A stretch of DNA of 8,910 nucleotides from Escherichia coli (GTDB lineage: Bacteria > Pseudomonadota > Gammaproteobacteria > Enterobacterales > Enterobacteriaceae): the NCBI RefSeq assembly GCF_044324785.1, contig NZ_CP172131.1. One strand, written 5' to 3'. The notes under the pieces are model-generated. The model searched no databases. It was not told the DNA's origin and saw only the letters and a list, made by a program, of their open reading frames with translations. Position 1 is the stretch's first letter, and each line of letters opens with the position of its first letter. The position numbers and the translations under genes are program-made. Below, piece by piece: positions 4,756-8,910 of the stretch.

Positions 4756-4863
4756 ACAGTATTTGGTATCTGCGCTCTGCTGAAGCCAGTTACCTCGGTT
4801 AAGCAGTTCCCCAACTGACTTAACCTTCGATCAAACCGCCTCCCCAGGCGGTTTTTTCGTTTA
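4756..4863 (+). ncRNA. RNAI: RNA I antisense copy-number control RNA (about 108 nt)
   Basis: 5' region acagtatttggtatctgcgctctgctgaagccagttacct is identical to ColE1/pMB1 RNA I as recalled. Three stem-loops are retained, including ggttaag...cttaacc and the terminal hairpin aaaccgcctccccaggcggtttttt acting as terminator. Confidence 0.8.
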
Positions 4864-5446: not shown

Positions 5447-7008
5447 ATACCCAACACATCATTTATAGTATTAAGTTTATTCTTGTCAATAAAGGCACAT
5501 AGAATGCCTGTAACAATAGCAATCCCCCAGATACCTAATGTAGTTCCAGCAAGCACACTAAAAAGTAAAACAACAATATAACTAACTCCAGCATCTACAG
5601 TTTTCTTCTCTAATGTAAGAAATAGTGGCTTCCAGTCACCTGTATCCTTAATTTTTAGGATATCAGATACCACATCATATCCAAAAGAAACATGTCCCGT
5701 AATCTTCAAGTACTTAGCAAACTGATCTAAATGCTTAGCCCAGTCTTCATACTTAACCGATTCCAGTGCATTGAAAATCGCATCACGGTCTGCTTTGCTG
5801 AATTTCTTATTTAAAACATCCTTGTATTTTTCAAAAGCAGCTAGAGCTTCATTCACATTGCTGATTTTCTTACCTTTAGACTTATCAGCAAGTTCCTGTG
5901 CCATTTTTGAATATTTTTCACCATATTTTTCAGATAGCGTTTGATAAAAGCTAACTGTTGCATCCACAGCATCCTTAATCTGCGAGTTCAGGAGATTAGT
6001 CTGCGCTGTTTTCAAATTTTCTTCAGATTCATGAACACGTAAAACAGCTGTATTACGATTATTATTAGCCTGAGACATAGCCCCCTGAATTCCATTTATC
6101 TCAGCATTAAGTTGGTTAATACGCGTTTCTGATGCTGTTACCTGTTTTTGTTTTTCCTCCATAATCTTACCGGCTCCCGTCCGTCGACTGGTGGCATAGA
6201 AAAAAGGACGACTCTGAAGCGGATCATTAGCTCTTGGTGACAATTTTTTGACCAGTTCATCAAGTTCCTTATATTTAGCAGATGCCTGAGCCAGCTCATT
6301 TCGTTTTCCGGACAGCGTATTCATTTCTGCATCACGGGCATGAATACTGGAGCTTAAACGGGTATTGAGAGTCTTAATCTCTTCATCCACTTTCGCCAGC
6401 TCAGATTGTGCAGCAGCAAGATTTTTTTGTGCCACCTCCACTGCCCGGGCCTCTTCATTCAATGCTGCCAGCCGTTTCTCTTCAGCTTCAGCCAGTTTCA
6501 ACTGGCGTTCTGTTTCAGCCTGCTCCTTCTCTATCTCTTTACGTCGTTGTTCTGCCTCCTGAAAAGCCTTTTCCGCAGCTTCCGCTTCTTTACGGGCTTT
6601 TTCTTCTGCTTTTGCAAGGCGCAACCGCTCTGCTTCTGCCTGCATCGCTGCATTATTGGCATGAGCCAGGTCAATAACCTCCGGATGAGTGGAATTATGA
6701 CGAAGCGCCTCATTCACAATATCCTTCAGATGTTGAGTCAGCGCATCCCGGTTTGCTTTTGCTTTAGCCTGTGCTTCTGCGGCAGCTTTTGCCCGGGCAG
6801 CCTGTTCTGCCTGCGTTTTCTTCAATTGAGCAGTAGACCATTTAGCTGTGGCATGAATGGCTGCAGAACTTTCACTTTTGCTACCTCCAGTTCCACCACC
6901 GCCGCCAGAGCCACTCCCGTCTGGATTACCATTCAAAAGAGTAATGATTACCTGCCCCTTATCATCATAAGGAACACCATCTTTATAGTACGCTACAGCT
7001 GTTTCCAT
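5443..7008 (-). CDS. cea: Colicin E1 (pore-forming colicin), 521 aa
   Basis: N-terminus [39 protein letters not shown] (Gly-rich translocation domain), a long Ala/Glu/Lys-rich coiled-coil central region, and a C-terminal channel domain with the hydrophobic hairpin [33 protein letters not shown]; SD gagg 8 nt upstream. Confidence 0.95.
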
Positions 7009-7055
7009 TATAAAATCCTCTTTGACATTAAAAACAAATAGTTAAAAGCAATATA

Positions 7056-7086
7056 CTGTATATATAACCACTGGTTTTATATACAG
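7056..7086. promoter_or_regulatory. Two overlapping LexA (SOS) boxes between the cea promoter and start codon
   Basis: On the - strand the sequence reads CTGTATATAAAACCAG followed by TGGTTATATATACAG: the first is a perfect CTG-N10-CAG box and the second overlaps it by one base, the standard colicin dual-box layout. Confidence 0.85.
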
Positions 7087-7090
7087 CTTA

Positions 7091-7119
7091 AAATTACGCC
7101 GCTGCATTTTCCCTGTCAA
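7091..7119 (-). promoter_or_regulatory. cea (colicin) promoter: -35 TTGACA (complement of 7114-7119), 17-bp spacer, -10 TAATTT (complement of 7091-7096)
   Basis: Consensus -35 with a 17-bp spacer, immediately upstream of the LexA boxes and about 85 bp upstream of the cea ATG. Confidence 0.75.
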
Positions 7120-7138
7120 CCCTGTGGATTTTCATTTT

Positions 7139-7154
7139 TGTGAAAACGATCAAA
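7139..7154. promoter_or_regulatory. Putative cAMP-CRP site (tgtga-aaacga-tcaaa) in class I position upstream of the cea promoter
   Basis: 9 of 10 match to TGTGA-N6-TCACA; centred about 62 bp upstream of the inferred transcription start; consistent with the known catabolite sensitivity of colicin E1 synthesis. Confidence 0.5.
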
Positions 7155-7267
7155 AAAACAGCCACCCACACCACGTGCTATTCCCACCCGATGCCACAAA
7201 AACCAGCACAAACATTACCGTTCTCCGGCCCCAGTATGTTTTACTGAAACCATGATATGAGACATTA

Positions 7268-7705
7268 ATGGGACACTGTCACTTCATGGCATGGCACACA
7301 CTCCAGAACGCACTGAAAATGACAGGCAGATCGCGTTCACAGTTTTACCGTGATATGCGCGCAGGCCTTGTCAGTTATCGTACAGGCCAGGACGGACGGC
7401 GGGAGTTTGAAACCAGTGAACTGATCCGGGCATACGGCGAATTAAAGCAGGATGAGACACCAGAAAGGCACAGTGCGGGACAGGCAGAAAATCCACATGA
7501 TCAGCAGACAGAACGCATTCTCCGGGAGCTGAATGAGCTGAGACAATGCCTGACACTGATGCTTGAGGACAAACAGGCACAGGCTACGGAACGCCGGCGC
7601 CAGGAAGCCGAACGGGAACAGCTACATAAAGAGATAGAGCAGCTCAGGCAGGCACTGGAGCAGGAAAAAAAACGGGGATTCTGGGCCAGACTGTTCAGCC
7701 GGTGA
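7268..7705 (+). CDS. Hypothetical protein: N-terminal helix-turn-helix-like segment plus charged coiled-coil C-terminus (145 aa from the first ATG)
   Basis: ORF with an AlpA/MerR-like HTH-looking segment (MTGRSRSQFYRDMRAGLVSY) and an E/R/Q-rich heptad-like C-terminal half. None of the three candidate starts (7268, 7286, 7319) has a good SD, so start and expression are uncertain. Confidence 0.5.
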   Translation: MGHCHFMAWHTLQNALKMTGRSRSQFYRDMRAGLVSYRTGQDGRREFETSELIRAYGELKQDETPERHSAGQAENPHDQQTERILRELNELRQCLTLMLEDKQAQATERRRQEAEREQLHKEIEQLRQALEQEKKRGFWARLFSR

Positions 7706-7788
7706 GCACCGACTGCAAGTGATGATAAGATAGTCAGCGGTTAAATATAAGTCACTGAGTACAAAGATTTAAAGGTAAGGAGACACTC

Positions 7789-8208
7789 ATGAGACGTTCC
7801 GGCGGCACACTGTATCTTATCGCCCTGCTGACAGCGGCAACGGTCCTGACAGCCTGCACGCCAAAGGGCAGTGTGGAACAACATACCCGGCATTACGTTT
7901 ATGCATCAGACGATGGTTTTGATCCTAACTTTTCCACCCAGAAGGCCGACACAACACGAATGATGGTGCCTTTTTTCCGGCAGTTCTGGGATATGGGAGC
8001 AAAGGATAAAGCGACAGGAAAATCACGGAGTGATGTGCAGCAACGCATTCAGCAGTTTCACAGCCAGGAATTTTTAAACTCACTCCGGGGCACAACTCAA
8101 TTTGCGGGTACTGATTACCGCAGCAAAGACCTTACCCCGAAAAAATCCAGGCTGCTGGCTGAGACGATTTCTGCGGTTTATCTCGATGGCTACGAGGGAA
8201 GACAGTAA
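7789..8208 (+). CDS. Predicted lipoprotein, 139 aa, function unknown (candidate entry-exclusion-type protein)
   Basis: Strong SD (taaggag, 6-nt spacing) and a signal peptide with lipobox (MRRSGGTLYLIALLTAATVLTAC, Thr at +2). The stop lies 5 bp before the cer core. Confidence 0.7.
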   Translation: MRRSGGTLYLIALLTAATVLTACTPKGSVEQHTRHYVYASDDGFDPNFSTQKADTTRMMVPFFRQFWDMGAKDKATGKSRSDVQQRIQQFHSQEFLNSLRGTTQFAGTDYRSKDLTPKKSRLLAETISAVYLDGYEGRQ

Positions 8209-8212
8209 GTGG

Positions 8213-8242
8213 ATTTACCATAATCCCTTAATTGTACGCACC
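8213..8242 (-). other. cer-type XerC/XerD core recombination site for plasmid multimer resolution
   Basis: atttaccataatcccttaattgtacgcacc is the exact reverse complement of the ColE1 cer core as I recall it: GGTGCGTACAA (XerC arm), TTAAGGGA (8-bp spacer), TTATGGTAAAT (XerD arm). Confidence 0.85.
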
Positions 8243-8420
8243 GCTGAAATGCATTCAGCGCAATCACGGCAGCAGACAGGTAAAAATCGCAACAACCCCC
8301 CCGAAAAACTACCGCGATCGCGCCTGATAAATTTTAACCTTATGCATACCTATGCATCCAGGTGAATCACAAGCGAATTTCCTTACTGAGACGACTGAAA
8401 CGGTTTTTTTTCACAATTTT
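8243..8420 (-). other. Inferred cer accessory region (ArgR/PepA-binding sequences; expected location of the Pcer promoter for Rcd)
   Basis: In cer the roughly 180-bp accessory sequences flank the XerC arm, which here faces higher coordinates. A near-palindrome gctgaa-atgca-ttcagc (8243-8259) abuts the XerC arm. The extent is inferred, not seen; Rcd would run on the - strand through the core. Confidence 0.45.
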
Positions 8421-8679
8421 CAGCTGTTTTCGATTCCACAAAATAGAAGTTACAGGATAGGGATTAATCCCCTTCGCCGCCAAGGGGAGCAGGATGAGTC
8501 AGGGGAATGTCTATTCACCTGCGCTGTACAGGCTGCCAGGTAAAAGTATTCGCTGCGGCACGATACTCTTTTGCCCTCATAGCCTTTGCGCTTCTTACTT
8601 TTCGTTCTTCCAGAATCATTCTTAAGACATTTTCCCGCACTTTTCTCTAACTTCCCGTGGCAATTTATCTCTGCCGGAC

Positions 8680-8910
8680 TGAACCGCCCCGGAAATCCTG
8701 GAGACTAAACTTCCTGAGAAAGATGTAAACAGGATGACTAAAAATACTCGTTTTTCCCCCGAAGTCCGTCAACGGGCAGTTCGTATGGTTCTGGAAAGCC
8801 AGGGCGAATATGACTCACAATGGGCGGCAATTTGTTCCATTGCTCCAAAGATTGGCTGTACGCCAGAGACCCTGCGTGTCTGGGTTCGCCAGCATGAGCG
8901 GGATACCGGG
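8680..8910 (+). mobile_element. Left end of an IS3-family insertion sequence resembling IS629 (partial; continues past the window)
   Basis: Terminal sequence tgaaccgccccggaaatcctggagactaaacttcctgagaaag starting at 8680 with the 5'-TG typical of IS3-family ends, followed 54 bp later by the orfA start. Confidence 0.8.
8734..8910 (+). CDS. IS3-family transposase OrfA (HTH N-terminal part), truncated by the window end
   Basis: Translation [59 protein letters not shown] is open to the last base; it matches IS629-group OrfA N-termini as recalled. Confidence 0.8.

Follow-up and report, generated by a model that had tools for sequence, protein, structure and literature searches.

On a plasmid of Escherichia coli, the lipoprotein gene exc2 and the Xer site cer lie almost end to end, and the cer promoter Pcer, from which the RNA Rcd is transcribed, lies on the far side of the cer core. 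The question raised by this locus is whether Rcd extends across the core and lies antisense to the 3' end of exc2, as the earlier note had supposed, or whether it ends ahead of the core.

Plasmid and setting

The window, by which is meant the whole stretch of DNA that was analysed (8910 bp), is a complete plasmid of the ColE1 family (colicin-E1-type). Its region 7200-8500 is 100% identical to about ten complete 8.9-kb E. coli plasmids, such as NZ_CP080168.1 and NC_010485.1, and the annotation of an identical plasmid includes MbeB/MbeD/MobC, Rop, a colicin-E1-type immunity protein, a pore-forming colicin, a hypothetical protein and an 'Exc2 family lipoprotein'. Since this 1.3-kb region is shared at full identity by about ten plasmids and ColE1 can be aligned throughout, the match at the exc2-cer junction reflects homology and not chance. 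RNAI was located at 4758-4860 on the + strand using Rfam, as the sole match past the gathering threshold, which places the primer RNAII on the - strand. The genes on the side of the cer core away from Pcer are as follows.

7268-7705, + strand: exc1, homologue of entry exclusion protein 1, the upstream member of the exc1-exc2 pair (list of open reading frames)
7777-7782, + strand: Shine-Dalgarno sequence AAGGAG of exc2, 6 nt ahead of the ATG at 7789 (sequence)
7789-8208, + strand: exc2, 139-aa Exc2-family lipoprotein, stop codon TAA at 8206-8208 (list of open reading frames, NF033828)

The counterparts of exc1 in identical and related plasmids are annotated as 'entry exclusion protein 1' or as hypothetical. 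A sub-threshold NCBIfam match of Exc1 to 'plasmid replication DNA-binding protein' (38 bits, cut-off 85) was observed, and the C-terminus after it resembles a coiled coil. All ColE1-like plasmids sequenced in PMC2831885 have an excI homologue, whose role is given there as unknown. 'Entry exclusion' was first credited to the exc genes and later reassigned to mbeD, with the role of Exc left unknown (PMC2831885).

At the other end of the window, the remnant of the left end of an IS3-family element, labelled 'transposase' in RefSeq, occupies 8680-8910 and continues across the circular junction to position 1. In it, TGAACCGCCCCGG at about 8680 resembles a terminal repeat, and orfA begins at 8734, its frame breaking at the junction of the window's end and start so that about 59 codons are left. 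We take this remnant to be IS629-like.

The exc2 gene and its lipoprotein

The reading frame, the AAGGAG and the canonical lipobox that had been described from the DNA alone all lie where they had been placed, and they belong to a real and conserved gene of the Exc2 family. The signal peptide covers amino acids 1-22, the N-terminus reading MRRSGGTLYLIALLTAATVLTAC and then T, and the lipobox LTAC consists of L20-T21-A22-C23 (codons 7846-7857), followed by T24. Exc2 is probably an outer membrane lipoprotein, sorted by the Lol pathway and conserved, as predicted from its sequence; outer membrane sorting is suggested by the +2 rule, the lipidated Cys being followed by Thr rather than Asp.

Homology searches placed the product in the Exc2 family, with 93% identity to Exc2 of ColE1. 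Exc2 matches NCBIfam NF033828 'Exc2 family lipoprotein' with 175.2 bits (cut-off 35; E = 8e-52) over profile positions 3-131 of 131, and tblastn detected the family in 923 PLSDB records, the identity falling to about 25-35% in large plasmids. C23 and a C-terminal Y-x-D-G-Y-x-G motif are invariant in the alignment of 22 Exc2 homologues, and even an IncF homologue of 33% identity, with no cer nearby, still has the C-terminal motif. A Pfam search with Exc2 gave no family. The AlphaFold2 model of Exc2 is mostly helical (pLDDT 78.7), and its comparison with solved structures gave no informative match.

An Enterobacter IncF plasmid (L021:760-2290) encodes a 230-aa Exc2-family lipoprotein between genes of the TonB and cloacin-immunity families, with no cer nearby. 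Because of these neighbours, and because exc2 lies beside the colicin operons in both ColE1 and ColA, there are hints that Exc2 is tied to bacteriocin biology rather than to conjugal exclusion. In the old ColA record NC_001373 (L018:451-798), an unannotated exc2 homologue contains an in-frame stop (...SLQ*TNT...), which is either a pseudogene or a sequencing error.

The junction between exc2 and the cer core

Two features follow the stop codon of exc2.

8209-8212, no strand assigned: spacer GTGG between the exc2 stop codon and the XerD arm, 4 nt (sequence)
8213-8242, - strand: cer core, consisting of XerC arm GGTGCGTACAA (8242-8232), central region TTAAGGGA (8231-8224) and XerD arm TTATGGTAAAT (8223-8213) (30/30 against ColE1)

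Read on the + strand, the core is ATTTACCATAA (8213-8223), TCCCTTAA (8224-8231) and TTGTACGCACC (8232-8242). This layout of an 11-bp XerC arm, an 8-bp central region and an 11-bp XerD arm matches the ColE1 cer at 30 of 30 positions, and the accessory region aligns to that of ColE1 (about 180 bp on the XerC side, with the ARG box expected of cer). A full-text literature search for this core gave no match. The ARG-box-like palindrome TGCATAGGTATGCAT is conserved across 17 cer-like sites and is predicted to bind ArgR; the sites aligned come from E. coli, Shigella, Salmonella, Klebsiella, Citrobacter and the Yersinia pestis plasmid pPCP.

The adjacency of gene and core reported by the earlier note stands; the distance of 5 bp given for it is the difference between coordinates 8208 and 8213, with four bases in between. 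The same 4-nt spacer occurs in ColE1, L003, L005, L019 and L020, and it measures 3 nt in L004 and 17 nt in ColA. The spacer of L005 (the Klebsiella 9.3-kb lineage) is still 4 nt, yet its cer is only 79% identical and has another central region; in L019 and L020, likewise, the length is kept with Exc2 being about 70% identical. At least 640 PLSDB records hold cer contiguous with the 3' end of exc2, as counted with a query coverage of at least 80%, cer making up 75% of the query so that contiguity with exc2 was required.

The gene is nevertheless not a fixed companion of the site. One refutation named in advance was an absent or disrupted lipoprotein gene in functional relatives, and this is largely what was found, exc2 being missing from most plasmids with cer-like sites and 5'-truncated in a 13.8-kb Klebsiella plasmid group. 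BLAST matches of the plasmids without exc2 end exactly at 8213, and 12 of the 17 cer-like sites have unrelated DNA past the XerD arm. The tight junction may be explained by the XerD arm being the outer boundary of cer, at which Xer-mediated exchange would swap the flanking cargo; were the arm the point of cargo exchange, a gene on that side would tend to adjoin it. The XerD arm forms a sharp boundary between modules, which is useful for annotation.

Several other arrangements were observed at the XerD arm. Other convergent reading frames end at the arm in plasmids lacking exc2 (L006:327-337, L007:328-338, L010, L015, L008, L013); for two annotated coding sequences the stop codon is the TTA of the arm itself (TAA on the opposite strand), and the others stop 10-23 nt off. 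In the Klebsiella plasmid pRGF99-1-6k (L020:880-960), exc2, the XerD arm and the central region are kept and the XerC arm is degenerate (TTGAACGAACC), the entire accessory and Rcd region having been swapped for unrelated DNA with a YdgH/BhsA-like gene; this junction looks like a recombination scar at the core. The - strand of CloDF13 (L022) carries a second exact XerD arm TTATGGTAAAT about 390 nt off the parB-type cer-like site, on the XerD flank of that site, and nothing upstream of this second arm is recognisable as an accessory region.

Pcer and the direction of Rcd

The standard promoter scan permits spacers of 16-18 bp and thus missed Pcer, of which a 15-bp spacer is a published hallmark (PMC5935869). 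A custom promoter scan permitting a 15-bp spacer recovered the ColE1 equivalent as TTGCAT-15-TAAAAT, and the alignment of the 17 sites gave the promoter of the window.

8331-8357, - strand: Pcer, with -35 ATGCAT (8357-8352), 15-bp spacer and -10 TAAAAT (8336-8331) (alignment of 17 sites)

The -10 reads TAAAAT(TTA) in 16 of the 17 cer-like sites and TGAAAT in L015, and the 15-bp spacing is conserved; 15 bp upstream of the -10 lies (T/C/A)TGCAT, within the ARG-box palindrome. The first position of the -35 varies (ATGCAT here, TTGCAT in ColE1, CTGCAT in most other sites) and the -10 is nearly invariant. In the window the -35 and the spacer overlap the ARG-box-like palindrome ATGCATAGGTATGCAT, and across the 17 sites the sole conserved promoter with a 15-bp spacer is the one overlying the ARG box. 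We infer that Rcd starts at about 8325/8324. The exact hexamers of Pcer and the +1 and 3' end of Rcd are to be read as a reconstruction from secondary literature and comparative analysis.

The rcd gene and RNAII invariably point in the same direction, polymerase encountering the ArgR side ahead of XerCD (PMC2831885). As RNAII lies on the - strand, Rcd is placed on the - strand as well, heading toward the core and exc2, so that the strand of RNAI together with PMC2831885 bears out the direction assigned in the earlier note. The cer site reads from the ArgR side to XerD on the - strand, in the fixed orientation to the origin expected from the co-directionality of rcd and RNAII. Pcer (8357-8331) would fire toward the core, the predicted order on the - strand being ArgR box and Pcer, Rcd, XerC arm, central region and XerD arm.

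The Rcd stem-loop and its extent

Two structural elements were identified between Pcer and the core.

8257-8324, - strand: main stem-loop of Rcd, a 17-bp helix pairing 8324-8308 with 8273-8257, with a conserved apex (RNAalifold, pair counts)
8243-8259, - strand: near-palindrome gctgaaatgcattcagc, forming a 6-bp hairpin GCUGAA-UGCAU-UUCAGC (minimum free energy folds)

The 68-nt main hairpin begins 7 nt past the -10 of Pcer. Across the 17 sites its helix is 96% paired, with compensatory double changes at 9 of the 17 pairs; none of 500 column shuffles matched these values, and shifting the 3' partners lowered the pairing to 31-66%. The helix is strand-specific: about 50 alignment cells are G.U pairs, which turn into A.C mismatches on the + strand, so that the pairing of 96% (- strand) drops to 80% there. 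As a single sequence, the 83 nt of 8325-8243 fold at -37 kcal/mol (z = -4.6).

The near-palindrome was found as originally described and adjoins the XerC arm; it sits between the arm and the main Rcd helix, adjoining each. Its hairpin has 80% of cells paired across the 17 sites and three pairs with compensatory changes, which is moderate support, and it is likely the 3'-terminal element of Rcd, judging from these alignments.

Two further pairings were considered and rejected. An outer helix proposed by RNAalifold, which joins UUAUCA just past the -10 to UGGUAA in the XerD arm, was discarded because the former bases precede the inferred start and the two motifs are each invariant as a promoter or protein site. 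A 4-bp 'terminator' hairpin of ColE1 (CGCG-CUGAA-CGCG-UUUU) shows only 82% pairing with no strand specificity, and its formation competes with that of the main helix.

The Rcd family is absent from Rfam; sub-threshold Rfam models of miRNA precursors land exactly on the hairpin coordinates and merely mark a hairpin there. A conserved 15-mer of Rcd has been published for which ColA is 93.3% and CloDF13 86.7% identical to ColE1 (PMC5935869). When all 15-nt windows of ColE1 from the promoter to 70 nt past the XerD arm were scanned, the 15-mer AGGGTGGTTTGTTGC in the hairpin apex gave both published identities (ColA 14/15, CloDF13 13/15). Besides it, only four windows over the -10 and start site did so, and no window in the core or in exc2 gave the published identities, which leaves the apical 15-mer as the sole candidate within a possible transcript.

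In the literature Rcd is described as an RNA of about 70 nt forming a single stem-loop and encoded within cer (reviewed in PMC4393325; about 70 nt with the 15-bp spacer in PMC5935869). The published sizes vary, with 90 nt given elsewhere against 70 nt, and one passage is ambiguous as to where Rcd ends. Patient and Summers (1993) reportedly put Rcd at about 95 nt.

From a start at 8324/8325, an RNA of 70 nt ends at about 8255 and one of 90-95 nt at 8234-8229, within the core, and about 117 nt are needed to reach the exc2 stop at 8208; even an Rcd of 90-95 nt would fall at least 21 nt short of the stop codon. Since the literature size, the ARG-box promoter, the covarying hairpin and the apical 15-mer agree with one another, Rcd most likely ends upstream of the XerC arm, running from about 8324 to 8243-8257, with no overlap of exc2. 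We thus consider it highly probable that the locus is a standard exc2-cer junction in which the functional Rcd is a stem-loop of about 70-80 nt stopping before the XerC arm. Rcd and exc2 would then be convergent neighbours, separated by the 30-bp core and without overlap. The covariation allows Rcd to be delimited as 8324-8257 plus a 3' hairpin up to 8243, which is useful for annotation of an RNA that has no Rfam family.

Possible transcription across the core

The overlap supposed by the earlier note was also considered in the form that Rcd, or a primary transcript from Pcer, crosses the core into the 3' end of exc2, so that a dimer-induced Pcer lowers or alters exc2 expression by antisense pairing or transcriptional interference. 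Pcer does face the core and exc2, and the older sizes of 90-95 nt extend into the core. A scan of both strands over 7000-8700 for intrinsic terminators yielded no canonical one, so that none was seen from the Rcd hairpin to exc2. Because of this, part of the transcription from Pcer could continue past the core and yield exc2 antisense RNA, which would then be shortened to the stable hairpin. However, the required length of about 117 nt exceeds the published 70-95 nt, Rcd is described as encoded within cer, and covariation and conservation end at the core, the structured and conserved RNA ending at or above 8243 and exc2 at 8208. In most cer-like sites, moreover, the DNA past the XerD arm is unrelated, which implies that the action of Rcd at those sites is independent of any exc2 sequence. 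The 3' end of exc2 points the same way: its last 24 codons differ from the Klebsiella copy by 9 synonymous and 1 nonsynonymous changes, with 3 of the synonymous ones in the last 8 codons. Judged from this comparison, its synonymous sites are free to vary, which is the signature of protein-coding constraint alone. Extension of Rcd into exc2 is thus very improbable, and once the overlap fails the proposed coupling of multimer state to lipoprotein expression is left without support.

An exc2 antisense RNA might instead arise at the core itself, from a second promoter CTGAAT-16-TACAAT (8258-8231) that has its -10 in the XerC arm and would be repressed by XerCD. The custom scan recovered it with matches at 8 of 12 positions in both the window and ColE1, and there is a precedent in pMB1-type plasmids, where EcoRI PR is reported to use the central TTAAGG of cer as its -35 and to direct transcription out of cer past the XerD arm (PMC7315355). 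A match of 8/12 is weak, however, since even a stricter 9/12 scan already yields about two matches in shuffled sequence, and the hexamers are unconserved across cer-like sites, whose XerC arms vary (e.g. GCGCGTAA and GCGGGCAA). Nor can this promoter be Pcer, because the published 15-mer of Rcd sits upstream of the core. Such a core promoter is exceedingly improbable.

Coupling in the reverse direction was also weighed, in which the exc1-exc2 mRNA enters cer from the XerD side with a 3' UTR complementary to Rcd; this could lead to titration of Rcd, collision with transcription from Pcer or displacement of XerCD. With only 4 nt between the stop codon and the core, exc mRNA probably continues into cer, where it would be antisense to Rcd; the + strand downstream has no terminator-like site and can still form a weaker version of the hairpin, and convergent reading frames at or near the XerD arm recur in plasmids without exc2. 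Those frames fit awkwardly with the case made in PMC2831885 against transcription entering cer from the XerD side, which is held there to be harmful and thus also counts against the coupling. The pairing of 80% on the + strand against 96% on the - strand indicates selection on the Rcd strand only, and exc2 is dispensable to cer-bearing plasmids. A regulatory effect of exc transcription on Rcd is therefore unlikely; if shown, it would modestly extend what is known of a well-studied plasmid-stability checkpoint. The broader proposal, that cargo transcripts entering past the XerD arm pair with Rcd as natural antisense RNAs or interfere with the XerCD repression of Pcer and that, reciprocally, read-through from Pcer in dimers damps exc2, is quite unlikely; if true, cargo expression would tune the Rcd dimer checkpoint.

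Comparison with known systems

The exc2-cer arrangement is already known, being the standard layout of ColE1 itself (Chan et al. 1985, cited in PMC2831885); as a textbook ColE1 arrangement, the junction as such matters little. The base-for-base alignment with ColE1 (NC_001371) spans the accessory region, the core and the identical 4-nt spacer and extends into exc2, and with respect to RNAI/RNAII, mob and the colicin operon the two junctions face the same way. The differences lie in point changes of the accessory region, including -35 TTGCAT in ColE1 versus ATGCAT here and four changes around the 3' hairpin, and in the IS3-family remnant and extra DNA that the present plasmid adds beyond the accessory region, away from exc2. 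For Rcd and Pcer, the 15-bp spacer, the stem-loop of about 70 nt within cer, the RNAII direction and the apical 15-mer are all shared with ColE1, whereas one pair of the helix is U.G here and C.G in ColE1, and one of the 3' hairpin is G-C here and G.U in ColE1.

The example of EcoRI PR in the cer core of pMB1/NTP14 (PMC7315355) shows that transcription can connect a cer core with the DNA on its XerD side. In that case the cargo gene points in the same direction as Rcd and is transcribed outward from the core, whereas exc2 faces Rcd and a credible core promoter is lacking here.

Both Ares-Arroyo et al. (2018) and Moran and Hall (2017) are said to describe cargo beside cer-like sites in ColE1-like plasmids and to put forward the idea of 'gene capture'. 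The plasmids with such cargo share the break of homology exactly at the XerD arm and varied genes on that flank, and by this comparison exc2 is the cargo of ColE1, ColA and the Klebsiella 9.3-kb lineage.
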